From Chthoniobacter flavus (GTDB taxonomy: Bacteria; Verrucomicrobiota; Verrucomicrobiia; Chthoniobacterales; JACTMZ01), in assembly GCA_945878135.1 (NCBI GenBank), contig CAMDUL010000004.1, positions 48,044-112,043 on the forward strand: a stretch of DNA of 64,000 nt. The letters run 5' to 3'. Shown here piece after piece: positions 4,495-29,888 of the stretch. A program made the translations under genes and the position numbers. The notes beneath the pieces are model-generated. The model made no database searches, had not been told where the DNA came from, and saw nothing but the letters and a program-made list of their open reading frames with translations. Each line of letters opens with the position of its first letter. Position 1 is the first letter of the stretch.

Positions 4495-4513
4495 GGGCTG
4501 AAGAGGTCAAAAC

Positions 4514-14048: not shown

Positions 14049-14058
14049 ACGCGTCAAT

Positions 14059-15141
14059 TCAGGGATTCAGGCTTATGGTGTTGGAGCCGGCGCGGGCGAT
14101 CAATCTGGACAAGCGCAAAAGCATATTCCCAAACAAAGTTTTGCGGGGTGACATCATATCGGGCCGCCTTGGTATAACGATCTTGAGGAGGGAGGCTAAA
14201 TGCTCAGCGATAACCCACTGTCCCTCAGCGCTCGGATAATTTCCCTGCTCCATGTAAGAGCTTGGGTTTGTCATGAGTAAACTGTGTATATCAACCAATT
14301 TGATGTGAGTTCCGCGCAGGCGCTGGCTGAGTGCCTTGTTCCATTCCGAGACATGAGCCTCCAGTGACTTCACCGGAGGCAGATTTGCGATCCACACATC
14401 CCGTGCACCAGCGCCCTCCAGCACGGTCAAAAGTTTGTCAACATTTCGCAGGAGAGATTCGATTCCGTGGCCTTCGATCAGGTCGTCTGTTCCCATCGCG
14501 ACAATCACGTTGGTATTTCGTATTCGTGGAGCAAGTCTCACCGCTAATGTGAGCACTCGTCTGCTGTTGGCCGCGGCAACACAAGCGTTCAGATAGCGGA
14601 GAGTTGTTCCGAATAGCAACTCCGGCCAACTGACAAAGTGCCGATTAGGCCACCGATTGTTGCTGAAGCCGTCACCAAGCACTATCCACTCAAGATCTTG
14701 CTTAGGGCGATGGGCGATCTCAATACTAGGCCTTGAGAGCCGGCTTCGTCCGGCCACCCCGAAGCCCCATTCTCCCTCCGCATTGCCATCATGAAGCACA
14801 CTAATTAAACCATAGCCGGAAGAACTGACTGATAGAAAGTCCGCATCTTGAAGAATCTCGAGGGCCGCATTCTCCGGAAGTCGTACCAGAACATGGTTGA
14901 GGTACACCGGTATACCGTCCTTGATGTGATAAACGGCAATAAGTCCGCGTTGCCGGCATACTTTGACCAGAAAATGGCAGCCAACGCCTTGAAAACCAAA
15001 AACAAAGTGACCGGCGTTCCGGTCCAGTAGCGGCAAGTGATATGTAACTTGGCAATCGCGGGCGCTTTCCGTGCCGAGCAAAACATAGCCGGGACCGAGA
15101 ATTTGTCCGTGATAGTGAGTTGCGCCTTTAATTAGCTTCAT
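14059..15141 (-). CDS. SGNH/GDSL-type hydrolase-fold protein with an unknown N-terminal domain
   Basis: C-terminal half reads WIVLGDGFSNN...VIVAMGTDDLIEGHG...WIANLPP...KLVDIHSLL. N-terminal about 150 aa unassigned. Confidence 0.5.
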   Translation of the reverse strand: MKLIKGATHYHGQILGPGYVLLGTESARDCQVTYHLPLLDRNAGHFVFGFQGVGCHFLVKVCRQRGLIAVYHIKDGIPVYLNHVLVRLPENAALEILQDADFLSVSSSGYGLISVLHDGNAEGEWGFGVAGRSRLSRPSIEIAHRPKQDLEWIVLGDGFSNNRWPNRHFVSWPELLFGTTLRYLNACVAAANSRRVLTLAVRLAPRIRNTNVIVAMGTDDLIEGHGIESLLRNVDKLLTVLEGAGARDVWIANLPPVKSLEAHVSEWNKALSQRLRGTHIKLVDIHSLLMTNPSSYMEQGNYPSAEGQWVIAEHLASLLKIVIPRRPDMMSPRKTLFGNMLLRLSRLIARAGSNTISLNP

Positions 15142-15168
15142 AAATCCGTTACCTATCCTTATTAGAAG

Positions 15169-16653
15169 TCACGATCGGGTCAGCAGCGGGCCGTAAAGTT
15201 GCCGGCTCAGGAAAAAGACGGTAATCGCGCCGACAGCCAAGGCGAGCAAGCTGCTGGAAAAGGATAACGTGTTTCCCATGCCGGTTTGGCTACCAAGCAA
15301 AAGCCAGGCAAGCAGGAAGCCGAGCAACGCCGGTAAAAGTTGCTTGATCCCGAGTAGCCAGCGGCGTGAACCGAATGCCCTTTGATAGACAAGCACACGG
15401 CTGACAATTGCGATGGGGAGGCCGGCCAACCGTGAAACAGCGGCACCAATCACACCTACCCAGCCAATGAGCAAATATCCGCCAAGCGCAATACTCAGCC
15501 CGCTCGCTAAGGCGGCGAAGGCGGCCAACCGAAAGTGCCCCATACCGAACATCAGATACGAAGGGAGAATGCTAGTCGATGTGAGGGCATTACTTAAGGC
15601 CAAGATTCGGAGAGCGGTAGCGATCTCTGCCGGCACATCCTGCCGCAACCACATTTCCAAGATAAACGGAGCCCAGATAAACAGAATCAGAGAAGCAGTT
15701 GTCCCCAACATTGTGGCGATGAACATCCCACGATTGAAAAGAGCAAGTCGGGCGGGATCGTTGGCCGAGAGGGACGCGAATTTGGGGAAGGTGAATGCGA
15801 GGGTCTGAGCTAAAATGGAGTGAGCCAGTTGGGCAAGCTGCAAGCAGGCGGCATAATAAGCGAGCACCGCGGGCCCCAAGAAGAGCGAGACCAACAGCCG
15901 GTCGGCCTGAGTCGACAATGTGCCAGCCAAACCTTGCAGCCAGCCATACAAGCTTAGGTTTAAGAACTCCCTGAGACTGTGTGCGTGGATCCATGGCACA
16001 AGCCAAACAGATCTCTGCAGGAGTCGGCAAACAGTCCATATGCCGATCAAAAGAATCGCCGTTAACACCATAGTTTGACCAATGATCATGCCGCCCAGCG
16101 AGCCACCAAACGCAACAATCGAACAGTAAGTGATTACGTTGGCCGAGCCACTGATGACACGTAGGAAGGATGACAGGTCGTAGCGCTCAAAACCGCGGAC
16201 TACGCCATCAAGAGCGGAAAAAAGGAACTGCATGGCTACGCCAAGCACGAAGATCGGTAGAAACGGGGCAAGAGCAGATAACATGCGCGGCGGCACGCCA
16301 AGCCAGCCCAGAAACGGTTCCCCGAGAAAAAAAAGAGCGACAGCCAACAGAATGACAAGGACAAGATAGAGTCCCCAAGCTGTTTGGATGACCCGAAGCA
16401 ACGTCTCCGACTCTTGTGTGCCGCGATAGCGGGCCACATAGAGAGTGGTAGCCGGACCGATGCCAAAGTCGGCCAAACCGGCAATGGTGAAAAGATTCGA
16501 GAGGAGTGTCCAGACACCGAAACCTTCCGCTCCTAATCTGCTCAAGAGAAAGGGTGTCGCAAAAAAGTAGAGGGCCGGAATAGCGAGCGCGGCAAAGCCA
16601 CTGGAGGAGGCGTTGCGGAGACTCCGTGAGGATGAAATCAAGCGAAGCGCCAT
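15169..16653 (-). CDS. wzx: oligosaccharide/polysaccharide flippase (MOP superfamily)
   Basis: 494 aa, about 12-14 TM helices. The N-terminal pattern matches Wzx-type flippases, and the locus context agrees. Confidence 0.7.
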   Translation of the reverse strand: MALRLISSSRSLRNASSSGFAALAIPALYFFATPFLLSRLGAEGFGVWTLLSNLFTIAGLADFGIGPATTLYVARYRGTQESETLLRVIQTAWGLYLVLVILLAVALFFLGEPFLGWLGVPPRMLSALAPFLPIFVLGVAMQFLFSALDGVVRGFERYDLSSFLRVISGSANVITYCSIVAFGGSLGGMIIGQTMVLTAILLIGIWTVCRLLQRSVWLVPWIHAHSLREFLNLSLYGWLQGLAGTLSTQADRLLVSLFLGPAVLAYYAACLQLAQLAHSILAQTLAFTFPKFASLSANDPARLALFNRGMFIATMLGTTASLILFIWAPFILEMWLRQDVPAEIATALRILALSNALTSTSILPSYLMFGMGHFRLAAFAALASGLSIALGGYLLIGWVGVIGAAVSRLAGLPIAIVSRVLVYQRAFGSRRWLLGIKQLLPALLGFLLAWLLLGSQTGMGNTLSFSSSLLALAVGAITVFFLSRQLYGPLLTRS

Positions 16654-16740
16654 GAATTAATTGCAGCGAGGCGTTGGTCCTCGGCACGAAAAAGGTCAGG
16701 TGTTCGTTTGCTGAACACAAGATACCAATCGGACGGAGGG

Positions 16741-17850
16741 TTACCCCTTGATCGCGTCACGAAATACGTCTTGGTAAAGGGTCGCCACTTGCGTGGCACA
16801 GCGCGCCCAGGTGAACCTCCCAGCACGTTCTTGACCTGCCGCCGACAACTTGAGCTGCAGGGACTTGTCGGAGAAAACCTGTCCAATAGCGACTGCCCAG
16901 TTCTCGGGACGAACAGGGTCGAGTAAGAGGCCAGCCTCGCCCACGACTTCGGGCAAGGAGGAAGCATTCGAGGCGAGCACCGGGCATCCTGAATGCATGG
17001 CCTCGAGGGGAGGCATGCCAAAGCCCTCGTAGCGGGACGGATAAACCAGGGCGATGGCATAGCGATACCATGTGGCTAGATCCTCGTCCGAGCATCGGGG
17101 CACAAACATCACTCGATCTCCCAGGACATGCTCCAGTTCAGCTGGTGTTGGCGTTTCGCCACCTAAGAAGACCAAGTGTAAACCCCGGCACAGAGGGCTC
17201 TGCATCACCTCGTAAAGAAGGGATGCGTTCTTATAGCCGCCCCGCTGGCCGACATAGAGAAGGTATGGCGACGCAAGAGGGGTTGCTGGTCGAGGCTTTC
17301 CCGGGAAGCTGGACCCGTGATGAACCACCGATGTCTTACCGGCGAGGTGAGGATGGAGCAACAGCAGGTCCTTCTCAGTATGCTTGGAAACGCAGATGAC
17401 GCGTGACGCAGCCGTCGCGGCTGCCAACTTCCTTGCCGGAGTAGGATCAGCAACCCCCGCCGGCAGCGGATAAAGCTCCGCGATCATGTCATGCACCGTC
17501 ACAAAAAGAGGTAGTCCAAGAGTTGTATCGATTGGGTGGTAATAAGTTGCGTGGTAAATATCTGGGTGAACAGAAGCGGCAAAACGCTTGAGGGCCAAGT
17601 TGTTGATGAAGGAAAAAGCGCGTTGTGGATATGCGCGGCACGGCAAACGTAATCCGGTGACCTGGACGCCAACGTCGCACAATGAGGCGAGCAGGCTGCT
17701 CGAGTGAAAGCCGGCAAATACCACCGGTTCGATCGAACCGGTGGCGTGCAATGCCCGGATAAGTTCAGTGAAATATCTGCTCACGCCGCCGACCGGCTGC
17801 ATGAGGAAAATACGGTGGTCAAAAAGGACCCGAATTTTACGGTGCTGCAT
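16741..17850 (-). CDS. glycosyltransferase family 4
   Basis: ALVYPSRYEGFGMPPLEAMHSGCPVLASNASSLPEVVGEAGLLLDP. Confidence 0.85.
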   Translation of the reverse strand: MQHRKIRVLFDHRIFLMQPVGGVSRYFTELIRALHATGSIEPVVFAGFHSSSLLASLCDVGVQVTGLRLPCRAYPQRAFSFINNLALKRFAASVHPDIYHATYYHPIDTTLGLPLFVTVHDMIAELYPLPAGVADPTPARKLAAATAASRVICVSKHTEKDLLLLHPHLAGKTSVVHHGSSFPGKPRPATPLASPYLLYVGQRGGYKNASLLYEVMQSPLCRGLHLVFLGGETPTPAELEHVLGDRVMFVPRCSDEDLATWYRYAIALVYPSRYEGFGMPPLEAMHSGCPVLASNASSLPEVVGEAGLLLDPVRPENWAVAIGQVFSDKSLQLKLSAAGQERAGRFTWARCATQVATLYQDVFRDAIKG

Positions 17851-17867
17851 CGTAAGCCACGCGCCGC

Positions 17868-18632
17868 CTACAAGGACGTAAGAAACTCCCGCTTCACCCA
17901 GAGAGCATCCATTTGCACAGCCCGCCCGGCTTTGTCATGCAGGCAGGGGTAAGTGTTTTTGAGCACTAATCCACAGTCGCCCTCGAGTAATGCCCGGATT
18001 TCGCCGAAGGAACTCTGGCCCTTATACATGCTCCCAAGCATGACCTCGCCGTAAAAGGCGGCGCAGTGGTCGCGGATAAAGTCCATGCCCCCCTGGATAA
18101 CCAGACCCTCCGCACCTTGGGTGTCGCATTTAATGATGCATGGCCCTGTTGTATGATGCTCGGCGGCCCAACTATTCAGGGTTCGGGTCTCGACCTCGCA
18201 TGAACCTACCGGAGTAGTATCCTCGGTAAACGAGTCAAGGTTCCCAGCGTCATTGTCCAAGAGTGAGGAGGTTTGCTCGTTCTTGTTGAGGTAAAATCGA
18301 GCCTGGCCATTCGTGTTCGAGAGCGCCAACTGGTAAAAGTTGATGCGGGGATACGGCTGCAGCAAACGCTTGGCCTTCTCGATGTTTTCACCAAACGGAT
18401 CAAAAGCAGCCACCGGGCAAGAAACTCCTGATTCGATAAAGCGAAGAAGGGTGTCTCCGTGGTGACAACCAATATCAAGAAACAGTCGGGCGTTTGACGC
18501 GCGGACAACGTGTGCGAGGCCGTAAAAAGGGTCCGAGTATCCAGCCACGGACTGCAGACGAGCCCGGAACCCGCGAAGTAAGCGACGCAACGGGCTAAAG
18601 CGAAGGAGGTAGAGGTAAGTACCTTTGATCAT
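17868..18632 (-). CDS. FkbM-family methyltransferase
   Basis: FLDIGCHHGDTLLRF...ALSNTNGQARFYLN...IIKCDTQGAEGLVIQGG. The ATG at 18632 overlaps the upstream stop (ATGA). Confidence 0.8.
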   Translation of the reverse strand: MIKGTYLYLLRFSPLRRLLRGFRARLQSVAGYSDPFYGLAHVVRASNARLFLDIGCHHGDTLLRFIESGVSCPVAAFDPFGENIEKAKRLLQPYPRINFYQLALSNTNGQARFYLNKNEQTSSLLDNDAGNLDSFTEDTTPVGSCEVETRTLNSWAAEHHTTGPCIIKCDTQGAEGLVIQGGMDFIRDHCAAFYGEVMLGSMYKGQSSFGEIRALLEGDCGLVLKNTYPCLHDKAGRAVQMDALWVKREFLTSL

Positions 18633-19903
18633 AGATTGGAAGACTCCGGGGCTTGGAGGCCGAGAAAATCGAGTGCACGTGCCGCCACATTGACAGCGTG
18701 AAACTCGTTGCACCAGATGTGGCTGATACGTATGGGCTCGCGTTGCCCCGTGTCCCAAGCTTCCGCTTCAAGCTGCAAGGCCTCGGCCAGTGAATCGGCA
18801 TCCATCCCAAGAGCCAGACGCCCGCTCTCCCGGCTTACATAATGATGGAAGCAACTAAGAGTTCCGGAGTTGCCCGCTACAACGGAGCATCCACAGCATA
18901 AAGCTTGTGCACCCGTTCCGATCTGGCCCTCGCTGCGGGAAGACCAGCAAGCAATCTTGGCCCTATTGTAAAAGGGGACGAGGTCGTCTGGTTGGAGGAA
19001 GTCGATGAACTCGCATCGGCTCAAGCTAGCTGATTGGGATTTGCCGAGGGCGGCAGCAAGACCGCTTGCTCCTTTGCCTACGATGCATGCCTTCCAATCC
19101 GGACGCGCCGAGAGAAACCTCTCAAAAGCATCCAGCAGAACGGCAGGGTTTTTCTGCACCCAGTCTTCCTTCTCCCATCGGGCAACAGAAAGGAGCAGAT
19201 TTTCCTTGCCCTCTCGACTGTAAGTGAACACGCGCATTTGCGGGTGCGGTAGATACCGAATTTTCGGCACCAAGTGTGGCTTCCCAAGACCGAGCGCCTC
19301 CCTCTGCAGCCATAGGGTAGCCAATGGTGAAACCCCGCAGACCACCGTTGCCGCCTCGTATGTGTTTAAGCGGGCACGCGCTACACGACGGATGCCGAAG
19401 TTGTCGAAAATGTCGGATATAAATCGAGCTGCCTCAAGCGGGGACGTCGCCTTCGTCCAAAGGTAGGAAAGCAAGTCACGTCTCCACAACCGCGGGTTTG
19501 CTGATCTGGAAACCAAACCGCACGAGTCAACGTTCACCAAGAAAGGAATGCCAGCACTCTGGACTGCCTTCGCAATAGAAAGATAGCGAGGCGCGGCCCA
19601 GCTGTAGAGAATGAGTCCATCAAGTTCTAGGCCGCGCCAGAAGTCAGCACTTTCAAGTTGCGGATAAGGGACGCGCAGCAAGGATTGCGCATCGTCTTGC
19701 TTCGCGGGTCCCGGCATGACTGATCTGCTGTCTATCCCCAGAGCAGCCAACCCTTTGGAAAACAAGCCGCTCTCTCTGGTAAAAAACCATGAGTCACCCC
19801 GAAAACACATTGGGGTTGAGGTGTAGACCCGCAGTGGTCGTTTACCTGATAGTGATGATGATTTCTCGTTCAATTTATTCAGAAGGAGTAGTCCCGCAAT
19901 CAC
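18629..19903 (-). CDS. glycosyltransferase, GT-B (GT4-like), divergent
   Basis: C-terminal half reads FLQPDDLVPFYNRAKIACWSSRSEGQIGTGAQALCCGCSVVAG. GTG start at 19903 is uncertain. Confidence 0.55.
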   Translation of the reverse strand: MIAGLLLLNKLNEKSSSLSGKRPLRVYTSTPMCFRGDSWFFTRESGLFSKGLAALGIDSRSVMPGPAKQDDAQSLLRVPYPQLESADFWRGLELDGLILYSWAAPRYLSIAKAVQSAGIPFLVNVDSCGLVSRSANPRLWRRDLLSYLWTKATSPLEAARFISDIFDNFGIRRVARARLNTYEAATVVCGVSPLATLWLQREALGLGKPHLVPKIRYLPHPQMRVFTYSREGKENLLLSVARWEKEDWVQKNPAVLLDAFERFLSARPDWKACIVGKGASGLAAALGKSQSASLSRCEFIDFLQPDDLVPFYNRAKIACWSSRSEGQIGTGAQALCCGCSVVAGNSGTLSCFHHYVSRESGRLALGMDADSLAEALQLEAEAWDTGQREPIRISHIWCNEFHAVNVAARALDFLGLQAPESSNL

Positions 19904-19936
19904 TGGTTATAAACAATATGTAGCAATCAAGCCTGC

Positions 19937-20290
19937 CTACAGAACCCATGGATAATCCAAAGAAGGTTGCTGGCCGTGCATCAATCCCAAGCGCATCTGT
20001 CGAATAGCTGAACACGCTGACTTGTCCAAGGGTCTTAGCAATCGGGTATTATCTAGACGCTGCCCATCTACATAGAACAAGTCCATCCAAAGACAAGCTG
20101 CGCCAGAAATCCGCGGATTCCAGTTCCGCATAGGCTACTCGCCTGAGCAGCGGATCTCTGTCCTCGACAGGCGGTCCTGGAAGAAGAGTCCGAGTGTCGA
20201 CCCCAAGCATGCCGAGCCCTTCGCATAGCAGGCCACTTTCGCGACTGAAAGAGTATCACCCCCGCGAAACCGAACGTGTGTGGACAAGTA
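19937..20290 (-). pseudogene. decayed partial duplicate of the N-terminal part of the adjacent glycosyltransferase (18629-19903)
   Basis: Reading across frames gives YLSTHVRFRGGD / PYAELESADFWRSLSLDGLVLCRWAASR-stop / YPIAKTLGQ. The intact gene reads VYTSTPMCFRGD / PYPQLESADFWRGLELDGLILYSWAAPRY / LSIAKAVQ. The copy has stops and frameshifts. Confidence 0.7.
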
Positions 20291-20295
20291 GACAC

Positions 20296-21051
20296 TCATA
20301 AGCGGGACGCTCCAGATCTGTGCGTTCGAACAAACGCGAAGACCGCATGCTTGACTTCCGCTAGGGCAAAACCTTCGCTTTGCAGTGCCTCTACAAAGTA
20401 TTTTCTTTTGATATCATCGCCATGGACTTCGGCCACTATTGCCTGGCAATTCATAAGACTGGGAGCATCCCTTGCTACAAGATCAAACTCACTTCCCTCT
20501 ATATCCATGACGAGCGAAAAGTCTCCTAACTCGTGCTTTTGAATAATTTTGGCCAATGTTATGCATGGCGTCAAAATACCGCTAGGGTTCCCTTCTTCGG
20601 CCACCTTACCGCGCACGTGCTCTCCGTGTTCGGCAAAGTTTACGTAGTCGCCTTGGTAATGCACGGCGCCGTGAATCGCCTCAAACCGAGATGAATGCCC
20701 GGCGGCAGCAACATTTACCCTCGACAATTCCAGCAGCGATTCAGAAGCCTCGACAGCCACAAGACGCTTTGTAGGCTCCAACTTGTGAAGAATGAGACGA
20801 CTGATAATGCCTATGCTGCAGCCCAGTTCAATGCAATCCTTGTCACGGGGTAACCAACGTTGAATCAAGATCCGCTCGGGATACTCGTATACTCCAAAAA
20901 TAATTGCGCCTGCGATATCGGCTTTGGCCTCAGAAGGCAAAGCAACAGGTCCAGCGCAATCGAAGCACCGATGTCGAAAAACCCAACCCGTTAAAATCCC
21001 AACAGGCCCAGTGGTCAAAAGCCAATAAATAAAGCCGCGCAAATGATTCAT
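20296..21051 (-). CDS. FkbM-family / class I SAM-dependent methyltransferase
   Basis: CIELGCSIGIISRLIL...LVAVEASESLLELSRVNV...VMDIEGSEFDLV. Confidence 0.75.
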   Translation of the reverse strand: MNHLRGFIYWLLTTGPVGILTGWVFRHRCFDCAGPVALPSEAKADIAGAIIFGVYEYPERILIQRWLPRDKDCIELGCSIGIISRLILHKLEPTKRLVAVEASESLLELSRVNVAAAGHSSRFEAIHGAVHYQGDYVNFAEHGEHVRGKVAEEGNPSGILTPCITLAKIIQKHELGDFSLVMDIEGSEFDLVARDAPSLMNCQAIVAEVHGDDIKRKYFVEALQSEGFALAEVKHAVFAFVRTHRSGASRL

Positions 21052-21165
21052 GAATTAATGCCAATTAGTATGTAAACGCTTTGCTGTTTATTTTAGACGG
21101 CTTTTACCGTGTCAGCTAAAGCAAGCTATACTCTGCAATATTGCGTGGCAATTCCAAAACACTGA

Positions 21166-22086
21166 TTAACTTTTCGTAAGGATATGAGCAGTTTCCCGCG
21201 CCGCAGATAAAGGTGAACACGTTTTCTCCCACCAGTCCCGCGTGGCTGAAGCGATGCTGTGCAATCTGTTATTGTCGGCAATAAGACTCGTAAGTATCTT
21301 GTGAATGCCCCGCCAATTGTCCAACTGGATGATCGGGCTATTTGTATAATAAGGGGATACAGGCAAAGTCTTGGAAACTACAACACAGCCAAGTTTCATA
21401 GCCTCAAAGTGGCGCATCGTCTCATTAGTGATGAAACCAGGAGGGCAAAGACAAATCTTACTCTTGGCTAAGACTTCAGCATACTCCCGACGCGTGAGCC
21501 CCGTGGCGAACCCGCCATTAAATCTGATGAATGATGACGGAAGCGAGTGAATGTCATGAGAGATAGCACGCAGGCCTTTGCTGAACAGAGATAAACTGCA
21601 TGTTGCTGCCGTTCCTAGAGTAGACGAAGGTAGAATATCTAAGGTGGGAAATTTTAGACGGAGAAACAACGGGGCCCTTTGCCGATTCAAGTTACCCGAA
21701 AAAAAAACCTGATAGTCGCGGCGATCAAACTCGATTAGGTCCGTGTGCAAAACGGCGGAAGCACCAAACAATGGAAAAGCGTGAACGTTGATCGGACATG
21801 GGTCCGGCAAGGCATAGCACTTAAAGACATGTTCGAATTTCGCAGCAGCATCGTCGGCTGGTCCGCTACTCTCGTCGCTGAACCAGATGAGAACGTGGCC
21901 TTTGCCAAAGCAAGGGAGTTGGAGTGGTCGCACGGCCAGATTGTGGTGTAGCAAATGAAAGGTCCACTTGCGGAACCCTTCGCCTAGGAACACGCTGAGG
22001 TGCTGGAAATACTCTTCCAGATGAGCAGCCTCGAAACCACCACGCCAATTGCCTCCAGTCGGCTCGGTTGCAACATTACTGAACAT
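21166..22086 (-). CDS. exostosin-like (GT47-like) glycosyltransferase, putative
   Basis: YAEVLAKSKICLCPPGFITNETMRHFEAMKLGCVVVS resembles the exostosin C-terminal motif. Confidence 0.5.
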   Translation of the reverse strand: MFSNVATEPTGGNWRGGFEAAHLEEYFQHLSVFLGEGFRKWTFHLLHHNLAVRPLQLPCFGKGHVLIWFSDESSGPADDAAAKFEHVFKCYALPDPCPINVHAFPLFGASAVLHTDLIEFDRRDYQVFFSGNLNRQRAPLFLRLKFPTLDILPSSTLGTAATCSLSLFSKGLRAISHDIHSLPSSFIRFNGGFATGLTRREYAEVLAKSKICLCPPGFITNETMRHFEAMKLGCVVVSKTLPVSPYYTNSPIIQLDNWRGIHKILTSLIADNNRLHSIASATRDWWEKTCSPLSAARETAHILTKS

Positions 22087-22127
22087 CGTGACGAGATTTC
22101 CGGGAACGCTGGGACGTGTTCCAGCAC

Positions 22128-23390
22128 TTACTCCGAGCGATCATAGCTCCTTGAGGCTAAGGCGTAGGCCTTCGCTAGTGTCTTCTGCAAGTGGCATGCA
22201 AGATAGCTTTGACGGATTTCGGTTACGGCGTGTCGCGAAAGATGGCTGGTGCATTTCTCGTCCCTCCATAATCGTTCAAGCTCGGTAGCAATCTCGTTGA
22301 TTGTTGCCTCCGGGGTCTTGAGCGAAAGGACCACGCCAAATCTACTCTTCACGATATCACCAGGGCCACCATTGCATAGCACGAGCGGCACACAGCCCGC
22401 AGCCATAGCCTCAAGCAAGGTAATTGGTGAGTTATCACGAAGACTTGGAAACGCAAAAACATGGGATGAACGAAGTGCGCTATAGAATGCGGACGTGGAC
22501 AGCGTAGGCTGAAAAGTGACATGGGAGCACAAATCAAGCTGCCTCACGAGGAGTTTGAGGGTGTCCAGCTCCAAACCTTGTCCACCAATTACGAGGTGGA
22601 TGGGTATTTGTGCAATGAAGACTAGCTTGTGTACAGCATGCAACAGAAGTCGGTATCCCTTACGATCTTCCATTGAGCCTCCTGTAAAAATTCTCAGTGC
22701 TTCTGGTGTTCGCTGGCTGGTTGCGGATTGGATTGTATCGAAAGCATCCTGCGTCAAAATATTCTGCTGAAATAATATGGGTTTTGTCCTCCCCATTCGT
22801 TTGAGCATCGACCCTGTCTGGTGGTTAGTGCAGATGATCACATCGACACTTCGTACGGCTCTACGTATTGAGGGATGAAACCGCATAAGACCAGTGTTCA
22901 GCGAGCGGAAGATCTCGAAAGCAAGGGTTTTCCTGCCCACGGCGTTCGCATAGCTCCAAGGGAACGTTTCTCCTCCTCCTATCGGACCCCAGACGGTTGG
23001 TGCGCCCAATCCGTGGTAGGGCATGCCGTAACGCCAGGACGCGATAGTCGTCTGATGTATTATGTCTACGCGTGTCGAGGAACATGACTCCTTAACTAGC
23101 CGGTAAAAGGCCCTGAGGTCGTAACGGGCTTTGAGGCTCTGGTTGAGGCGGACTGCAAGTGGATGTTTAACTTTTAGATCCCATTGGGTTCCAGAATCCC
23201 GAATCTCCGTAAGCTTTGGTGGGTTAAATCCATTACGGTGCCCCCATCTAACTTCGCTGGCGCATAGCGGTGTTGTGAGCAACGTTACTCGGGAATCCTC
23301 AGGAACGCTGTTCAGGCAGGACCATCCGACGTAGCCCTCGGAGCCCCATCGCGGTGACACGGCTGATGCAACCATTAAAATGTTTCTCAC
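22128..23390 (-). CDS. glycosyltransferase family 4
   Basis: VFAFPSLRDNSPITLLEAMAAGCVPLVLCNGGPGDIV. GTG at 23390, or ATG at 23375. Confidence 0.8.
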   Translation of the reverse strand: MRNILMVASAVSPRWGSEGYVGWSCLNSVPEDSRVTLLTTPLCASEVRWGHRNGFNPPKLTEIRDSGTQWDLKVKHPLAVRLNQSLKARYDLRAFYRLVKESCSSTRVDIIHQTTIASWRYGMPYHGLGAPTVWGPIGGGETFPWSYANAVGRKTLAFEIFRSLNTGLMRFHPSIRRAVRSVDVIICTNHQTGSMLKRMGRTKPILFQQNILTQDAFDTIQSATSQRTPEALRIFTGGSMEDRKGYRLLLHAVHKLVFIAQIPIHLVIGGQGLELDTLKLLVRQLDLCSHVTFQPTLSTSAFYSALRSSHVFAFPSLRDNSPITLLEAMAAGCVPLVLCNGGPGDIVKSRFGVVLSLKTPEATINEIATELERLWRDEKCTSHLSRHAVTEIRQSYLACHLQKTLAKAYALASRSYDRSE

Positions 23391-23699
23391 GTGATGCTGT
23401 CGCTCAAATTAGTGATGCTGTAAACACCGTTGCTGATCTTGATCGAGACTGGGTGGTCTCTCATATCTCCTGCACGTTCGACGCAAATTATCTTTAGATA
23501 TTTTGGTGCTGTCTGTACTACTTTTAGTTAAAATCTCCTGAATTGATCCGGTTAAGCGGTTAAGGGGCTAGAAAGGGATAAAACGAATTGCGAAATCACA
23601 AGCTGGTGAAATTGGGCCGAGTGCAGATTATAGGCCGTAGGTTTTTAGTTACCTTGGCAACAATACCTCTCTAGACGGGTCAGCGGCGCAGCAGTCGTG

Positions 23700-23783
23700 C
23701 CGGCAGTTGCGTCGGGTGATAGGGATGACGGTGAATCTGTAGCCGCGGACGATGGGTTTGAGGAGAAGTTCGACTGAAACGCG
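23700..23783 (-). pseudogene. internal fragment of a GT2 gene, truncated at the low-GC island boundary
   Basis: VELLLKPIVRGYRFTVIPITRRN against intact VELPLKAIVRGYSFTVIPITWRN (24.3 kb). Similarity ends where GC content drops. Confidence 0.75.
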
Positions 23784-23805
23784 GAAACGAGGAAATACTT
23801 AAGAT

Positions 23806-24193
23806 GCCCTAAAGAAGTATGCTGCGCGCTTAACAGAGTGAAGGGTCAAGTTACGGTCTTTTTGTAGTCACCTCGCGAAAAATATTTTTCGAGCCAGACA
23901 AACGGCTCAGCTGCGGTGACGAGTGGCCTGGTGAAGTAGGCTTTGCACTTCACGGGCCAAGTGAAAGTGAAAGGGATGCGCGCCACGCGCGCAGTAACAA
24001 GTGGCTAGTGGCTGGTGGCGGGTAGCTGGTTACTGAACCGGAACGAAGTGGAGATAGCCGCAGGCAAACTTGAGGCCTGAGGGAGCCTTTGCTATCGCAA
24101 TTTGCGATGTCAAAGATTCGAGCTCTTGTTTGCTAAGCTGGAAACGAAAGTCCTTGCGAAAGTGGGCTTGGTCGCACTTCACGGGCTCAAGCG
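23806..24193 (+). repeat. H-box mosaic block M1
   Basis: H-box copies at 23813-23834 (degenerate), 23931-23953 and 24162-24182 (half). Also GTGAAAGTGAAAGGG, CTGAACCGGAACGAAGTGGAGATAG (24033-24057) and the small palindrome ATCGCAATTTGCGAT. Confidence 0.85.
23846..23899 (-). pseudogene. remnant of a GT2 3' terminus
   Basis: VWLEKYFSRGDYKKTVT-stop against intact VWLEKYFSRGDYRKTAA-stop (24194-24247). Confidence 0.75.
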
Positions 24194-25147
24194 TCAAGCC
24201 GCGGTCTTTCGGTAGTCGCCGCGAGAGAAATACTTCTCCAACCATACATAGAGGACGATGAAGAGGTAGCGGCTGCCCATTTCTTTGATTTTGAGTTTGG
24301 CTAGGCCGGTGCGGCGGTTGCGCCAGGTGATGGGGATGACGGTGAAACTGTAGCCGCGGACGATGGCCTTCAGGGGGAGTTCGACCGTGACGTTGAAATG
24401 CGGGGCAAGAATTGGCCGGATGCCGTCGATGACTTCTTTGCGGTAGGCTTTGAAGGCGTTGGTCGTGTCGTTCAAGCCGTGACGGAAAAGGAAGCGCACG
24501 AAGGCGTTGGCCAGGCGGTTCATGAAGAGCTTGATCGGCGGGTAGTCGATGGTGCCGCCTCCCTTCATGAAGCGGCTGCCGAAGACGCAGTCGTAGCCTT
24601 CGTTGAGCTTTTTCCAATACCGGACGACATCGCGGCAGTCGTCGCTCTCGTCGGCCATGAAGATGACCGCTGCGTCGCCGTTCATGGCGTCGAGGCCGAG
24701 GGTGATGGCGCGGCCGAAGCCCTTGGGGCCGGGATTTTGCACGCAGTGTAGAATCCTGTGACGAGGGTCGAGTGACGAGTGAGGAGTGGGTGTAGCTGGG
24801 GGCGGCCCGGTGAAGTATGCTTCGCACTGCACGGGCTGAAGGGGGGACTGGAGACCTGAGTCGGAAGCCTGAGTGACTGCGCCTTTGGCGCGGGTATCGC
24901 CAACCTCCGAATTTCTATCTTCCATCTTCCGCGGCACGCCGTTCAGCCGCGCTGCTTCTTCTTGGAGGATTGGCCAGGTGCGGTCTTTGGAGCCGTCGTC
25001 GACGACGATGATTTCGTGCGGGACGCCGCGGAGGTCCAACTCGAGATGCAGGTGCTCGACGGTGGACGCGATGCAGCCTTCCTCGTCACGCGCGGGGATG
25101 ATGACGGAGAGGAGCCGGAGAGGGGAATTTTTAACAGAAGGTAACAA
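24194..25147 (-). CDS. glycosyltransferase family 2, DPM1/GtrB-like (carries an in-frame repeat insertion)
   Basis: LLSVIIPARDEEGCIASTVEHL...HEIIVVDDGSKDRTW...NPGPKGFGRAITLGLDAMNGDAAVIFMADESDD...FGSRFMKGG...KLKIKEMGSRYLFIVLYVWLEKYFSRGDY. Confidence 0.85.
   Translation of the reverse strand: MLPSVKNSPLRLLSVIIPARDEEGCIASTVEHLHLELDLRGVPHEIIVVDDGSKDRTWPILQEEAARLNGVPRKMEDRNSEVGDTRAKGAVTQASDSGLQSPLQPVQCEAYFTGPPPATPTPHSSLDPRHRILHCVQNPGPKGFGRAITLGLDAMNGDAAVIFMADESDDCRDVVRYWKKLNEGYDCVFGSRFMKGGGTIDYPPIKLFMNRLANAFVRFLFRHGLNDTTNAFKAYRKEVIDGIRPILAPHFNVTVELPLKAIVRGYSFTVIPITWRNRRTGLAKLKIKEMGSRYLFIVLYVWLEKYFSRGDYRKTAA
24750..24925 (+). repeat. H-box mosaic segment inside the GT2 coding sequence (approximate limits, about 57 codons)
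   Basis: GTGACGAGGGTCGAGTGACGAGTGAGGAGTGGG, plus an H-box at 24810-24832 (22/23) followed by GGGCTGAAGGGG. Read on the minus strand in frame as ...LQPVQCEAYFTGPPPATPTPHSSLDPRHR... Confidence 0.8.
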
Positions 25148-25302
25148 AGTGAACGAAGGGGAGGGGCGCCCCGGTGAAGTATGCTGCGCGCTTCACAGGC
25201 CAAGTGAAGAGGGAAAGTGAAAGTGAAAGGGAGCCAGAGACCGGAGATCGGAGGTCGGCCCGGTGAAGTATGCTGCGCACTTCACGGGGTGAAGGAGAAA
25301 GG
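25148..25302 (+). repeat. H-box mosaic block M3
   Basis: Two H-boxes (25174-25196, 25263-25285) separated by AAGTGAAGAGGGAAAGTGAAAGTGAAAGGG. Confidence 0.9.
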
Positions 25303-25614
25303 TTAGGGGTCGTAGCGGGCTTCTTCCTCGGCTACGACCGGCGTGTTGGCGTGAGCTTGACGGGCCCATGCCGGCGCGGATCCGGTGAGCAATTGGTATA
25401 GGTATTCGGGCGAGAGATCGAAGCCGCATCTCCAGGCCAAGGTGGGCCATTCGTCGAGATAGAAGTCCGCGAATTTTCCGGGATCTCGAAGGTCCGCCGC
25501 CGCCTCGTATTTGCCGATGGTGTCGCGCAAATCAATGACACCGGAAAGGCCATCGCTGAACTCGATCGAGATCAGGTGGTCCTCAAGGTGTCGGGCGTTC
25601 TTAACTGATATCAT
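25303..25614 (-). CDS. DUF2442 domain protein
   Basis: MISVKNARHLEDHLISIEFSDGLSGVIDLRDTIGKYEAAADLRDPGKFADFYLDEWPTLAWRCGFDLSPEYLY. Confidence 0.8.
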   Translation of the reverse strand: MISVKNARHLEDHLISIEFSDGLSGVIDLRDTIGKYEAAADLRDPGKFADFYLDEWPTLAWRCGFDLSPEYLYQLLTGSAPAWARQAHANTPVVAEEEARYDP

Positions 25615-25616
25615 GC

Positions 25617-25956
25617 TCAAGTTAATGGTTCGATTTTGTGGAACTCTTTGCTGTCCCACATTTGCAGAAGTTGCCTCCCTCGCCCCGCTCGTGTCGCCCT
25701 ACGGGCTGCCTTCGGCAGGGTTGATGCTCGTCCTGCGAGCGAGCACCCCTGCGGGGCACAGACTTGCGCTGTGTCTATCTCCAACTGCACGGCAGTTTCC
25801 GGTTCCCCGCGCGGCCATCCGCGCCGGTGGTCAGCACTTGCTGCTGATCGAAACGACTGCGCGCCATTCGTTGTATCGCACGTGGAAATGGGGCGGGTTG
25901 TGCTCGTCGAAATACATGCTAATGACGACACCGAGGAATCGACTTATTTCGGGCAT
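25617..25956 (-). pseudogene. disrupted DUF4160 gene
   Basis: MPEISRFLGVVISMYFDEHNPPHFHVRYNEWRAVVSISSKC then an in-frame TGA. The family-typical C-terminus ...LLQMWDSKEFHKIEPLT-stop is in another frame, after a second GEPETAVQLEIDTAQV segment. Confidence 0.65.
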
Positions 25957-26002
25957 GTCATTAGGTAACCGGGACGCTTTGGCAATTGAAAGATGCAATC
26001 TA

Positions 26003-26056
26003 TCATTGCGTGAGGGACTTTTGGTAATTCCCGCGGGAGAAGTATTTTTCAGCCGG
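26003..26056 (-). pseudogene. remnant of a GT2 3' terminus
   Basis: EKYFSRGNYQKSLTQ-stop. It shares the upstream sequence CTCGTCACCGCRGCTGAGCCG with the remnant at 23846-23920. Confidence 0.7.
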
Positions 26057-26286
26057 ACAAGCGGCTCAGCCGCGGTGACGAGTGGCGCGTGAGGGGGGCG
26101 GCCCGATGAAGTATGCTTCGCACTTCACGGGCCAAGTGAAGAGGGAAAGTGAAAAGTGGAGGGTGGAGAGCTGAACCGGAACGAAGTGGAGATAGCAGAT
26201 GGCCCCAAGGCAAATGGGTCGCTCCTGCGACCAAATTTTGAAAAACTGAAAAGCTGAAATACGGCGAACTGCGCGCTTGGCGCGGT
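26057..26286 (+). repeat. H-box mosaic block M4
   Basis: GCGGTGACGAGTGGCG, H-box 26106-26128, GTGAAGAGGGAAAGTGAAAAGTGGAGGGTGGAGAG, CTGAACCGGAACGAAGTGGAGATAG (26171-26195), CTGAAAAGCTGAAA. Confidence 0.9.
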
Positions 26287-26288
26287 TC
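26266..26288 (-). terminator. putative intrinsic terminator downstream of hicA
   Basis: Minus-strand RNA GAACCGCGC-CAA-GCGCGCAGUUC (9-bp stem, one mismatch) followed by GCCGUAUUUCAGCUUUUCAGUUUUUCAAAAUUU. Confidence 0.4.
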
Positions 26289-26493
26289 AAATGTCGTCCT
26301 CGACCAAACCGGCTATTTTCATCTGGGAGCGCAGCAAGCCGATCTTCAGTGGTTGGTTGCCGTGGATGGGGATGACGATGCGCTCTGGTCGGCCGGTTAG
26401 CGTGAAGACGTGATGGCTGCCTTTGATGCGGACAAGAATCCAACCCTTCTTCTGCAAGGCCCGGGCCAGCTCTTTACCGGAAACTTGTTTCAA
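26287..26493 (-). CDS. hicA: HicA-family mRNA interferase toxin
   Basis: MKQVSGKELARALQKKGWILVRIKGSHHVFTLTGRPERIVIPIHGNQPLKIGLLRSQMKIAGL. Confidence 0.9.
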   Translation of the reverse strand: MKQVSGKELARALQKKGWILVRIKGSHHVFTLTGRPERIVIPIHGNQPLKIGLLRSQMKIAGLVEDDI

Positions 26494-26693
26494 AGAGCGA
26501 GTTCCAGCACGCGGCTTTCCTTTTCGGCGACCGCCGAAGCCTCACCGGCTTCGAACCAAAGCTCGACGGCCTCCAGAAGATTGGTGCGGATCTCCTCCTC
26601 ACTTTCCCCCTGCGTGACGCAGCCGGGAAGTGCCGGGACTTCAGCCCAAAAACCACCTTCTTCTGCCTCGTGAACTATGGCTTTGATCGTCAT
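26490..26693 (-). CDS. hicB: HicB-like antitoxin (UPF0150 fold, no DNA-binding extension)
   Basis: TIKAIVHEAEEGGFWAEVPALPGCVTQGESEEEIRTNLLEAVELW. 4-nt overlap with hicA. Confidence 0.85.
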   Translation of the reverse strand: MTIKAIVHEAEEGGFWAEVPALPGCVTQGESEEEIRTNLLEAVELWFEAGEASAVAEKESRVLELAL

Positions 26694-26887
26694 GACTGCA
26701 GCATATCGGCGGTGGGTTGAGGAGGCAAGCGGAGCGGCGCGCTACGCGCGCAGTAGCGGATGGCTGGGCCTGGTGAAGTAGGTTACGCACTTCACGGGGT
26801 GAAGGAGAGTGAAAGTGAGAGGGGGGAGTTACGGAAAGGCTGAAAGACTGAAACGCTGAACGGAGTGAAGATGGGTCGCGAATTCGC
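26694..26887 (+). repeat. H-box mosaic block M5
   Basis: H-box 26773-26795, GTGAAGGAGAGTGAAAGTGAGAGG, GGCTGAAAGACTGAAACGCTGAACGGAGTGAAG. Confidence 0.9.
26700..26728 (-). promoter_or_regulatory. putative sigma70-like promoter of hicBA
   Basis: Minus strand reads TTGCCT - 17 nt - TATGCT, with the -10 hexamer ending 6 nt before the ATG (a leaderless-type layout). Confidence 0.3.
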
Positions 26888-27304
26888 TCACGCCTTTCGC
26901 TTCATGGTGGGTTCGATGACGGTCAGGTTGGTGAAGTAGTCGCGGTAGTATCCCCTGTCTCTGGCCAACAGGCGGCTGGCCTGACAAGACGCGTGTGCTC
27001 CGATGAGAAAATCCGGAAGGACGCGCTTCGATGCACGATTTCGGCGGAGGTAGTCGCGATACATTTCACCGGCCAAGATGGAAGATTCCCGCGAGGACGG
27101 CACAAAGAGGATGTTCCAATCGGCCAAGAAGGAACTTAGATTGTCCTTGGTCAGCGCGGGGGTGATCTCGGCCAGCACGCATTCCCCGATGACCAGCGGT
27201 CCGTTGCCGAGCGCCCGTTTCAAGGCTTCTTCCGAGGCTTGACCCCACTGTGGGTCGTCAGTCAACACGTCAAGAATGACACTGGAATCCAAGGCGGTCT
27301 TCAT
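26888..27304 (-). CDS. vapC: PIN-domain toxin VapC
   Basis: MKTALDSSVILDVLTDDPQWG...GECVLAEI...DFLIGAHASCQASRLLARDRG. ATG at 27304 overlaps the antitoxin stop. Confidence 0.85.
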   Translation of the reverse strand: MKTALDSSVILDVLTDDPQWGQASEEALKRALGNGPLVIGECVLAEITPALTKDNLSSFLADWNILFVPSSRESSILAGEMYRDYLRRNRASKRVLPDFLIGAHASCQASRLLARDRGYYRDYFTNLTVIEPTMKRKA

Positions 27305-27525
27305 CCTCCGCGCACGAGGCCCAAATATTCGTCGACCGAGCGACCAACCGGAAGAATCCCTTTTCCGCGCCAAGCCGAAATCGGATTTTCCTGGAGTATT
27401 TTTGTCACAATGATGCGGCCCTCGTCCTCGGCAAACGCGAGAACGGAACCGGCCTCGAGCCCCAGGTCATCGCGAATGGGTTTGGGGATGGTCACTTGGC
27501 CCTTTTCCGAGACAATAGCATTCAT
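27301..27525 (-). CDS. vapB: AbrB/MazE/SpoVT-family antitoxin (VapB)
   Basis: MNAIVSEKGQVTIPKPIRDDLGLEAGSVLAFAEDEGRIIV. Confidence 0.85.
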   Translation of the reverse strand: MNAIVSEKGQVTIPKPIRDDLGLEAGSVLAFAEDEGRIIVTKILQENPISAWRGKGILPVGRSVDEYLGLVRGG

Positions 27526-27531
27526 ACTTTT

Positions 27532-27559
27532 ACGGTAGGCATTCTTACAACTGTGTCAA
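27532..27559 (-). promoter_or_regulatory. putative sigma70-like promoter of vapBC
   Basis: Minus strand reads TTGACA - 16 nt - TACCGT, with the -10 hexamer ending 6 nt before the ATG. Confidence 0.3.
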
Positions 27560-27896
27560 TCAAGAGGGCGCGGCGGACGCAGACAGCCCGCGGGGGACGA
27601 GCGATGAGTGATGAGTGAAGAGTGAAAAGTGGAGGGTGGAGAGCTGAACCGGAACGAAGTGGAGATAGGTCGCTTTAGCGATCAACTGATACCGGAACGA
27701 AGTGGAGATAGCCCGAAGGCAAAAGCTGAAAGGCTGAAAGGCTGAGAGGGGACGAGTGGCGTGTGACGAGTGACGAGTAGCCCAGTGAAGTATGCTTCGC
27801 ACTTCACGGGGTGAAGGGAAAGTGAAAGGGGAGGCGCGCTTCACAGGCTAAAGAACCCTCCAGCGCTTCGCGCTTACGGGTTGGAGAGAGTGAATC
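27560..27896 (+). repeat. H-box mosaic block M6
   Basis: GATGAGTGATGAGTGAAGAGTGAAAAGTGGAGGGTGGAGAG, CTGAACCGGAACGAAGTGGAGATAG twice (27644-27668, 27692-27711), GCTGAAAGGCTGAAAGGCTGAG, GACGAGTGGCGTGTGACGAGTGACGAG, H-box 27785-27807, half copy 27831-27850. Confidence 0.9.
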
Positions 27897-28286
27897 TCAG
27901 CCGAGGGACTTGACGTGGGGGTAGTCGAGGATGAGGCGGTCGGTTGTGATGATGGTGAGATTTTCCAGGCGCGCCGTGGCGATGATGATGCGATCGGCGG
28001 GATCACGATGGACGGGCTCGGGCAGGGAGTAAGCTTCTTCGATGATCTCGAGGGAGATCGGGACGATGTTCCATCCGTTCCGTTCCGTTTGGGTGCGGAA
28101 CCATTTCTTCCAATGTTGCGGAAGACGGATCTTTTGCCGCTCCTGCAAGCAGGCCAGTTCGGCCGCGACGATCGGGCTGCAGTGGACGATCTGCTCGGGC
28201 GAAGCGACCAACTCGAGGGCCGCGGTGCTGAGTCGCTCCGGTGCGGCGGCAAGATAGAGCAACGCGCAGGTATCGAGCAGGATCAT
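27897..28286 (-). CDS. vapC: PIN-domain toxin VapC
   Basis: MILLDTCALLYLAAAPERLS...DPADRIIIATARLENLTIITTDRLI. Confidence 0.85.
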   Translation of the reverse strand: MILLDTCALLYLAAAPERLSTAALELVASPEQIVHCSPIVAAELACLQERQKIRLPQHWKKWFRTQTERNGWNIVPISLEIIEEAYSLPEPVHRDPADRIIIATARLENLTIITTDRLILDYPHVKSLG

Positions 28287-28534: not shown

Positions 28535-28800
28535 GGCTTGAAATGTGGCTATAAAGTTGGCCAGGTCAAGCGTGAAGAGCGGCCTGGTGATCTATACTTT
28601 GCACTTCATGGGCTGAAGGGGACGAGTGGCGAGTGAAATGTGAAATGTGAAAAGTGGAGGGAGGGAAAAAAGAGAAGAAAAGCTGAAAGACTGAAAGGCT
28701 GAAAGACGGACGGGGTGCGTGTGGCGAGCGGCTCGTTGAAGTATGCTTCGCACTTCACAGGCTGAAGGGGGTCCGCTTCGGGGTTTCAGTTTCCTTTGTG
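28535..28800 (+). repeat. H-box mosaic block M7
   Basis: H-boxes at 28587-28609 (degenerate) and 28736-28758. Also GTGAAATGTGAAATGTGAAAAGTGGAGGG and GCTGAAAGACTGAAAGGCTGAAAG. Confidence 0.85.
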
Positions 28801-29617: not shown

Positions 29618-29888
29618 GGGGAAAGTGAAGAGCGAAGAGTGAGGAGTGAGGAGTGGAGAGTGAAGATCCACGATAGAGGGGTGGGAGGGAATGTCAATTC
29701 AAAATGAAATTGGTAGCGGAGGCCCCGGTGAAGTATGCTGCGCACTTCACGGGGAGAAGAACGGGGGTTACTGAAACGCTGAAAGGCTGAAGGGCTGAAA
29801 CGCTGAATGGCCGAGGGACCAGTGGCACGGTGAAGTTGGCTTCGGCCTCGGGAAGGGGGCCCTTAAAGGGGGAGCGGGGCGGCGTTGG
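29618..29888 (+). repeat. H-box mosaic block M8
   Basis: GTGAAGAGCGAAGAGTGAGGAGTGAGGAGTGGAGAGTGAAG, H-box 29728-29750, CTGAAACGCTGAAAGGCTGAAGGGCTGAAACGCTGAA, degenerate H-box 29830-29852. An AT-rich TTGACA-16-TATCGT (minus strand, about 29676-29703) is a possible GbsR promoter. Confidence 0.85.

Follow-up and report, generated by a model that had tools for sequence, protein, structure and literature searches.

Introduction

Bacterial interspersed mosaic elements (BIMEs) of Escherichia coli are extragenic, and their motifs and partners (integration host factor, gyrase and Pol I) are specific to enterobacteria. Rickettsia palindromic elements (RPEs; Ogata et al. 2000) are short non-autonomous repeats that occur between genes and also in frame in open reading frames (ORFs), where they are translated at positions that the protein fold can accommodate and the host remains functional (PMC10969869). 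For repetitive extragenic palindromic (REP) sequences, Di Nocera et al. (2013) counted the most intragenic GTAG cases in Opitutus terrae, a verrucomicrobium; single intragenic units encode 20–30 amino acids (aa) and clusters 43–82 aa, and REPs in recB lie at about the same site in two Xanthomonas species (PMC3733652). In this study, we analyzed a stretch of 64,000 nucleotides of the soil/freshwater verrucomicrobium Chthoniobacter flavus (assembly GCA_945878135.1, contig CAMDUL010000004.1, positions 48,044–112,043; hereafter the window), in which a gene for a family-2 glycosyltransferase (GT2; 24194–25147, minus strand) carries an in-frame insert.

A previous reading of the sequence alone had compared this insert with RPEs, and the follow-up bears the comparison out: intergenic repeat DNA lies in frame in an intact, selected GT2, in a permissive loop. 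The insert is probably a patchwork of the lineage's own short interspersed repeats that built up, in frame, within a single surface loop of a glycosyltransferase that remains functional. The same reading was not aware of such a case from the lineage. Our literature search turned up no report of this kind of repeat for Chthoniobacter and related Chthoniobacterales; however, in-frame REPs had been reported from the same phylum, in Opitutus terrae (PMC3733652, 2013).

Results

Extent and composition of the insert

The repeat system of the window consists of a REP-sized hairpin of ~32 nt, referred to as the H-box, and arrays of purine-rich 7–8-nt words, and it is the usual filling of intergenic spacers. 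In the host GT2, the insert lies between helix α2 (..EEAARLN) and strand β3 (ILHCVQN). Alignments and a loop census against insert-less orthologues gave a whole lineage-specific insert of 62 codons (residues 70–131; 24755–24940, minus strand). The previous estimate of ~57 codons correctly describes MEDRN..PRHR (residues 75–131, 24755–24925), but the extra length relative to insert-less orthologues is 62 codons. As had been stated, the insert has no stop codon in the host GT2 frame.

About 90 nt of the insert (24758–24845) match repeats elsewhere in the window and, judged by these matches, belong without question to the window's intergenic repeats, in antisense orientation within the host GT2. 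For this part, the claim that the insert DNA is made of intergenic words was correct, but BLAST with the insert as query found no other copy of 24846–24940 in the window. The matching part begins with a period-7 word array (24758–24788, plus strand; GTGACGA × 4.4 by Tandem Repeats Finder), translated antisense as HSSLDPRHR. The words at 24758–24790, GTGACGAGGGTCGAGTGACGAGTGAGGAGTGGG, form this array with 79% matches. Intergenic arrays of this type occur at 27751–27778, 27599–27648 and 29624–29666, the first and last of which precede intergenic H-boxes; BLAST within the window also matched 24758–24788 to words that precede intergenic H-boxes, at 27763, 29637, 26075 and 28623. The H-box core (24807–24835, plus strand) is antisense to the GT2 and translated as PVQCEAYFTG, with similarity to other copies extending over 24798–24845, and GGGCTGAAGGGG occupies 24833–24844. 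The in-gene H-box, CCGGTGAAGTATGCTTCGCACTGCACGGG, agrees with the consensus CCGGTGAAGTATGCTTCGCACTTCACGGG at 28/29 positions, the sole difference being T→G at 24829; the 22/23 previously counted for 24810–24832 reflects this single change.

A DNA alignment showed that a 48-nt (16-codon) segment with the H-box core (24785–24832, plus strand) is absent in the closest empty-site orthologue, locus L123 (protein P0005). In L123, module (a), described below, is followed by ..CTTCAGCCC|T|CCTCTCGTCAC, and the window has the additional 48 nt at this point, with no target-site duplication visible in the alignment. The proposed comparison with insert-less GT2 genes thus set the borders at 24755–24940, but it revealed no target duplication in the L123 pair. 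Instead of the single ~170-nt element that had been suggested, the insert is a mosaic assembled in steps at a hot spot; just 48 nt of it are lineage-specific relative to L123, and its other modules recur in orthologues in varying combinations. Judged from these alignments, the loop grew stepwise from repeat modules, and the last step in the window lineage was the 48 nt with the antisense H-box. In addition, the RNA fold of the whole insert was no more stable than those of shuffles (z +0.97), so a large palindromic element is unsupported.

The remaining part of the insert (24846–24940) resembles the repeat words and forms a module that orthologues also carry at this site. Two word-like 12-nt direct repeats, GGAGACCTGAGT and GGAAGCCTGAGT (24850–24874, plus strand), resemble GGAGACCGGAGATCGGAGGTCGG at 25234–25258, and 24846–24940 also contains GAAGATAGAAATTCGGAGGTTGGC, comparable to GAGACCGGAGATCGGAGGTCGGC at 25236–25258. 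Module (a), GVPRKMEDRNSEVGDTRAKGAVTQ (24869–24940, minus strand), is purine-rich on the sense strand of the gene and is common to the orthologous proteins P0002–P0009 and to other orthologues. Its DNA is 93–94% identical to that of loci L081 and L082 and ~83% identical to that of L123, and the third-position identity of the adjacent 5' flank is 0.71 for L082 and 0.48 for L123. Module (a) therefore looks younger or more constrained than the surrounding gene.

No Rfam family was found anywhere in the window, a scan of the insert found no promoter-like or terminator-like site, and no intein-type splice-junction residues are present at the insert borders (G70 ... R131|I132). Therefore, nothing suggests excision or a split gene, and no evidence was found for the alternative raised previously, removal of the element at the RNA level, or for its removal from the protein.

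H-box copies in the window and beyond

With up to 3 mismatches allowed, the H-box has 6 copies in the window, compared with 0 in 100 shuffles; with up to 6 mismatches, it has 12 copies, every one on the plus strand. When the insert was masked in the window and used as a BLAST query, 12 H-box matches were returned (E 3e-12 to 9e-3). The 11 other window H-boxes match the family of the in-gene copy at 23–28 of 29 positions, and 5 of them at 27/29. One of these lies in a second GT2 gene, described below. The intergenic copies are located at 23928–23956 (downstream of the host GT2), 25171–25199 (24 nt upstream of its start), 25260–25288, 26103–26131 (the closest match to the in-gene copy, 37/39), 26770–26798, 27782–27810, 28733–28761 and 29725–29753; two further copies, at 4469–4497 and 28584–28612, have 4 and 6 mismatches, the latter being degenerate.

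The hairpin of intact H-boxes has ~12 pairs and one bulge (dG −14 to −20 kcal/mol, z −2 to −3.5). The in-gene hairpin is weakened by the T→G change at 24829 (dG −12.1, z −0.4), compared with −14.2 to −20.5 for three intact copies. We rejected the idea that such weakening is specific to the in-gene copy, because the intergenic copy at 28733 is likewise degraded. Across 60 distinct copies in the loci examined, the consensus is GCCCGGTGAAGTATGCTNCGCACTTCACGGGC; these copies are few substitutions apart and show no compensatory stem changes. An exact-match scan of JGI metagenomes found the H-box on just 37 contigs, and none was present in the 80 loci kept from other genomes. On these grounds, the H-box family is, as far as its sequences can tell, lineage-restricted and young.

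The dispersed copies bear directly on another explanation, in which the insert is an ordinary lineage-specific low-complexity linker produced by local slippage and indels only, with the likeness to the words reflecting a shared mutational bias. The 7-nt array and 12-nt direct repeats inside the insert would fit such a linker, as would the 7-aa length steps among orthologues, a module (a) without dispersed copies in the window or the loci examined, and the failure to find a transposase or a target duplication. However, local slippage cannot account for a 29-nt hairpin with 11 further matching copies across the window. The same element also entered a second, unrelated loop of another gene, and orthologues have unrelated modules directly at both borders. 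We therefore regard a slippage-derived linker as rather unlikely and prefer a patchwork of dispersed repeats.

The loop in orthologues

The orthologue set consisted of the closest 120 proteins of Chthoniobacterales type in a public collection, and the loop census was made on the 110 of them with both anchor motifs. The 120 proteins are 72–88% identical to the window protein outside the loop, with lengths of 250–362 aa, and the length variation is confined to the interval from ..EEAARLN to (I/V)L(H/R)..(Q/R/K)N. In the census, the loop contained 0–106 extra residues in ~40 length classes and was insert-free in 7/110. Recurring modules appeared in various combinations, among them SASVTQVSNSGFSPHEPRE, FPSTLNPQPSTATSHSSPVTRHR, SDLRSPNSDPPDTRHTSHATSHK and GVPRKMEDRNSEVGD.RAEGAVTQ, as well as QVCHGLSTSAAADSGSG, GCSPNEELSPLRSGSRHR, HTADGIRHEAGGEG and RGQKPEFGDQMPEDGRSE. 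The N-side border (GVPRK.. or other) and the C-side border (..RHR|ILHCVQ or ..RE.|VLR.I.N) were seen in all four pairings, so recombination or repeated gain is required. The census thus shows, at the level of aligned sequences, that in one clade the loop is a landing pad for repeats, with 0–106 extra residues and modules differently combined.

For more distant relatives, the analysis used the 80 best loci from other genomes, most of them placed in Verrucomicrobiota or Planctomycetota. They match the host GT2 over ~730–770 nt and are thus insert-free. A 395-codon match in locus L010 was considered as a giant insert and rejected, since it consists of a normal gene and a downstream remnant of the gene's 3' end. 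Because these distant loci are insert-free and the L010 exception proved false, the empty loop is the ancestral state, as inferred from the loci compared.

At the position of the H-box, other orthologues have different words. L082 has GGAGCAGG/GAGCATG words, as precede the window H-box at 5688, and L084 has CCGACCTCCGATC, the reverse complement of window 25243–25258. The third-position identity between L081 and the window drops from 0.93 on the 5' side to 0.76 on the 3' side, and over the initial 126 nt past the insert it is 0.67; this profile shows a recombination breakpoint at the insert in this pairwise comparison.

The H-box peptide was found in only one of the 120 listed orthologues, the window protein itself (P0001). 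A word-indexed protein search with the 62-aa insert returned no candidate sharing three 5-mers. An exhaustive HMMER search of 1.84 billion representatives with the insert matched P0121 alone, in a setting where short H-box peptides cannot reach significance. P0121 is a 188-aa product from an independent metagenome (JGI 3300059473, 3.5-kb contig) and represents a near-identical allele that also has the H-box peptide: it shares the N-terminus up to ..GLQSPLQPVQSEAYFTGP, which is followed by the last 17 residues (VWLEKYFSRGDYRK). It independently reproduces the left H-box junction (..GLQSPLQPVQ.EAYFTGP). This junction bears on the possibility that metagenome assembly created the in-gene H-box artificially, by a chimeric join through the repeat. 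The repeated nature of the family, the metagenome-assembled look of the contig and the structure of P0121, itself possibly a misassembly, would allow for such a join. However, the sequence on either side of the H-box comes from one and the same gene, in the correct order and without a change of frame, and the left junction recurs in an independent sample; an artefact is therefore extremely improbable.

The loops of P0031 and P0080 differ by exactly 7 aa, equal to 3 heptamers. In a further explanation, the repeat tract itself is selected, either as a contingency on/off switch by slippage of ±1 7-mer or for regulation, localization or mRNA stability. In its favor, both in-gene cases are GT2 genes and the host GT2 adjoins a polysaccharide gene cluster, the period of 7 cannot be divided by three, the conservation of module (a) exceeds that of synonymous sites, and the diversity in loop length is extreme. 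However, tracts of such small size and imperfect match (4.4 copies, 79% matches) are poor slippage substrates, the module content is not conserved across orthologues, the protein is cytoplasmic with no obvious pressure for surface diversification, and the insert has no promoter-like or terminator-like site. The loop differences among orthologues were in-frame only, in a comparison biased to intact ORFs. We consider selection on the tract itself distinctly unlikely and retain the patchwork of interspersed repeats as the preferred explanation.

Two further observations concern the orthologous loci. At L010:787–1971, an insert-less GT2 orthologue is followed by an isolated second copy of the last 15 codons (YVWLEKYFSRGDYRK), which suggests a past replacement or recombination at the 3' end of the gene. 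In L084 (6427–6447) and L085 (6271–6291), the ILHCVQN codons 3' of the insert contain a perfect 9-bp inverted repeat, ATTTTGCAC-TGC-GTGCAAAAT, which window 24734–24754 matches with 2 mismatches; it was rejected as a dispersed repeat because it occurs at the orthologous site only.

State of the host gene

The host gene (24194–25147, minus strand) is an intact ORF of 317 aa encoding a DPM1/GtrB-like GT2. PF00535 matched it with 3.8e-18 (66.4 bits, gathering cut-off 23.3) in two stretches parted by the insert. The profile of the orthologues matched the Pyrococcus furiosus dolichol-phosphate mannose synthase 5MLZ (1.7e-17), GtrB 5EKP (1.9e-7) and ArnC 9HWJ (3.5e-7). The motifs IIVVDDGS, NPGPKGFGRAI and ADESDD were all found, and DDGS and the DXD-type ADESDD are conserved. 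Both the PF00535 match and the homology and motifs thus place the gene in the GT2 and DPM1/GtrB-like family. The previous description of an uninterrupted ORF with family motifs in both halves is confirmed by the ORF, PF00535 and the motifs.

In comparison with 4 orthologues over 226 alignable codons, the flanks of the insert have a synonymous divergence (dS) of 0.38–0.59 and a nonsynonymous-to-synonymous ratio (dN/dS) of 0.068–0.095; by this measure, they are under strong purifying selection. The openness of the insert was compared with that of the intergenic repeats. In 186-nt windows of the intergenic repeat clusters, 0.3% of plus frames and 10.5% of minus frames are stop-free, compared with 40% of frames in random 186-nt windows of this GC-rich sequence, and the insert is open in 2/3 minus-strand frames. 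The notion that the antisense strand of the repeats is intrinsically stop-free was rejected, since 9/33 frames of 109-nt units and the above 10.5% of 186-nt windows are open. Therefore, the open insert counts as evidence for selection, and the host GT2 so appears to have kept only repeat versions compatible with its reading frame. Because the flanks are under purifying selection and the insert, unlike the intergenic clusters, is stop-free, the host GT2 is most likely functional, to the extent that codon comparisons can indicate.

A dead gene that has yet to gain stops had been among the alternatives, and it is unlikely given the dN/dS of 0.07–0.10 and the stop-codon test. In a narrower form, the H-box insertion inactivated the gene, leaving a young pseudogene still without stops. 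The H-box step is indeed recent and lineage-specific, P0121 has the N-terminus and the H-box without residues ~120–300, and dN/dS averages the whole divergence and is blind to very recent relaxation. However, orthologues with inserts of up to 106 aa have intact ORFs and conserved flanks, and the 48-nt step is in frame and stop-free, which is rare in intergenic clusters. All catalytic motifs are intact, and a second gene tolerates the same element. A young pseudogene is thus very improbable, and we proceed with a functional glycosyltransferase that carries the repeat patchwork.

The loop in the protein structure

The insertion site corresponds to the α2–β3 turn of the GT-A fold. In both AlphaFold2 (AF2) models, the helix at 57–70 and the strand at 133–136 are confident (pLDDT 77–90), and residues 71–132 have no secondary structure (pLDDT ~30–54). 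In 5MLZ, the homologous helix and strand are linked by 1–2 residues, and chain residues 78 and 80 flank the site. In the GT-A/Rossmann topology, the nucleotide-sugar/DXD site and the α-to-β connections are on opposite sides of the sheet. A tolerated surface-loop insertion, one of the options of the sequence-only reading, is the best reading.

A second glycosyltransferase with an H-box

The window contains a second GT2 (PF00535; 5531–6529, plus strand) with an in-frame repeat mosaic, here in the α1–β2 loop; relative to the modal orthologues of 287 aa, it has 45 additional aa. The modal orthologue has nothing between ..SV(A/R)DQ and (I/V)(E/Q)HIVCDGGS. A 66-nt (22-codon) segment with an H-box (5653–5718, plus strand) is absent in the orthologue L125 (P0123) by DNA alignment. 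The H-box itself (5688–5716, plus strand) is read in sense and translated as TGEVCSALHG. Other orthologues of this gene have different word-derived inserts, for example NEWRVTSDES, DECRVASDEAKE and TQGAGSGEQG. The right-hand junction, ..CACGGGCT|GAAGG, is identical at both filled GT2 sites in the window.

A member of this second GT2 family, P0211, whose cluster occurs on 13 contigs, has a further 18-aa insertion, YRDGKKVFGFQCSVGGQL, at another site (alignment columns 142–159). On a metagenome contig, an exosortase gene (L104:3–866, minus strand; PF09721, 1.3e-25) holds an H-box-derived stretch at L104:303–331, with 4 mismatches, translated as AREVRSIFHA and with the word-like LRTEDGRQRADEGGRTTD upstream.

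Genomic surroundings

All 12 H-boxes and all word arrays (4469–29753) have one polarity, with the purine-rich strand on plus, which coincides with a strongly positive GC skew at 24–32 kb (0.15–0.27). On other contigs, the H-boxes are mostly co-oriented, and in L122 the orientation flips several times. Long spurious minus-strand ORFs run through the repeat clusters (24030–24827, 24682–24903, 25193–25450, 26066–26443 and 27560–27844) and read the H-boxes as PVKCEAYFTGP, REVRSILHRA or SPCSAKHTSPG; gene callers would likely report them as hypothetical proteins. A word-dense segment at 17111–17170 (minus strand) was considered as a further repeat and rejected as ordinary GT4 coding sequence.

A block of ~15 kb (~9000–24000) has a G+C of 0.50–0.56, compared with 0.60–0.70 elsewhere. 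Among the genes on its minus strand are those for GT4 glycosyltransferases, a GT47-like protein and an FkbM methyltransferase, and the block probably represents a variable island for polysaccharide synthesis. The host GT2 adjoins the edge of this island, and a repeat-bearing spacer of ~800 nt separates it from the last island gene. At 25303–28286 (minus strand) lie small genes of toxin-antitoxin type (DUF2442, HicA/HicB, PIN with a MazE-like antitoxin, and a second PIN), parted by H-box and word clusters, and the same neighborhood is found beside the orthologue in L081.

Discussion

If the preferred reading is right, the insert would be transcribed and translated as a disordered linker of ~60 residues. 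It would be neutral or nearly so, because the α-to-β connections lie opposite the nucleotide-sugar/DXD site. New modules may arrive by REP- or MITE-like (miniature inverted-repeat transposable element) mobilization on single-stranded DNA; alternatively, they may arrive by recombination, template switching or gene conversion between word arrays, through GAAGG microhomology. Arrival would be preferentially beside existing words, and both filled sites of the window end in the shared GAAGG junction given above. In this way, one accidental in-frame array could seed further mosaic growth, slippage of 7-mers in three-unit steps and recombination within the repeats could shuffle the modules, and insertions would persist only in loops that face away from the active side of the fold.

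Several points weigh against this reading. No further copy of module (a) was found in the window or the other loci, and its repeat origin is suggested by word similarity. The module is also better conserved than adjacent synonymous sites in L082 and L123, which could mean constraint and not neutrality. In the AF2 models, the C-terminal half is poor (mean pLDDT 52–58), and the proposed placement of the loop relative to the active site follows from general GT-A topology and the 5MLZ alignment. Transcription and translation of the insert are predictions. No transposase (RAYT, the REP-associated tyrosine transposase, or IS200-like) was found in the 64-kb window by a crude HUH...Y regular expression, and no terminal inverted repeats or target duplication were seen in the comparisons of the window with L123 and L125; the mobility of H-box modules is thus our proposal. 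Finally, P0121 represents either an allele that bears the H-box and has lost its catalytic core by deletion, or a contig misassembled at the repeat.

A broader generalization would be that the repeats of the Chthoniobacterales clade systematically colonize α-to-β loops of glycosyltransferases and of other proteins and create self-seeding, module-shuffling hypervariable linkers, in which out-of-frame 7-mer tracts possibly act as on/off slippage switches for polysaccharide genes; at present, this seems unlikely. The locus nevertheless offers a natural experiment, with one orthologous loop of 0–106 extra residues, dozens of module combinations and a second gene in the same genome. Such a series permits tests of how repeats enter genes, which loops are permissive, and whether disordered linkers are neutral or used. 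For annotation, length variation and split Pfam matches in these GT2 genes should be read as repeat insertions, and spurious ORFs with PVKCEAYFTGP-type peptides as translated repeats.

Compared with RPEs, the H-box system is alike in being a dispersed repeat that is both intergenic and in frame, with 2 of the 12 window H-boxes inside GT2 genes. It differs in its architecture: an RPE is a single unit of ~100–150 nt with a conserved peptide in a reduced alphaproteobacterial genome, whereas here a 32-nt hairpin and arrays of 7–8-nt words form a multi-step mosaic, a distinction drawn by description. The in-gene copies are also read on opposite strands (PVQCEAYFTG versus TGEVCSALHG), and one orthologous site shows a turnover of 0–106 aa across a clade. 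BIMEs are similar in being intergenic mosaics of a palindromic unit and a few short motifs, variably combined. In enterobacterial repetitive intergenic consensus (ERIC) and MITE in-frame fusions, small repeats with open frames likewise add peptide segments to the host (Delihas 2011, PMC3184786; PMC10969869). However, terminal inverted repeats and target-site duplications, both features of MITEs, were not seen here in the L123 and L125 comparisons.

The H-box is REP-like as an imperfect palindrome of 20–40 nt with many mostly extragenic copies. With the GTAG/CGTC REPs, it shares the size of the palindrome, a mostly intergenic location with a minority of copies wholly in ORFs, the phylum, and stem variants that often give G-T pairs. 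In contrast to these REPs, the H-box lacks the terminal tag that serves as their criterion (PMC3733652): GTGA starts the stem, and GTA(T/G) lies in the loop. REP doublets (REPINs) are inverted; within the window, the 12 H-boxes are co-oriented with no inverted pair, and a crude motif search of the 64 kb found no RAYT. The hosts here are glycosyltransferases and not DNA-repair genes. By their defining features (tag, unit size, reading strand and, as far as the window shows, doublets), the H-box system is outside the RPE and GTAG/CGTC families, and it adds a free-living, large-genome lineage, the Chthoniobacterales, and an untagged repeat family to the few cases of repeats entering proteins.

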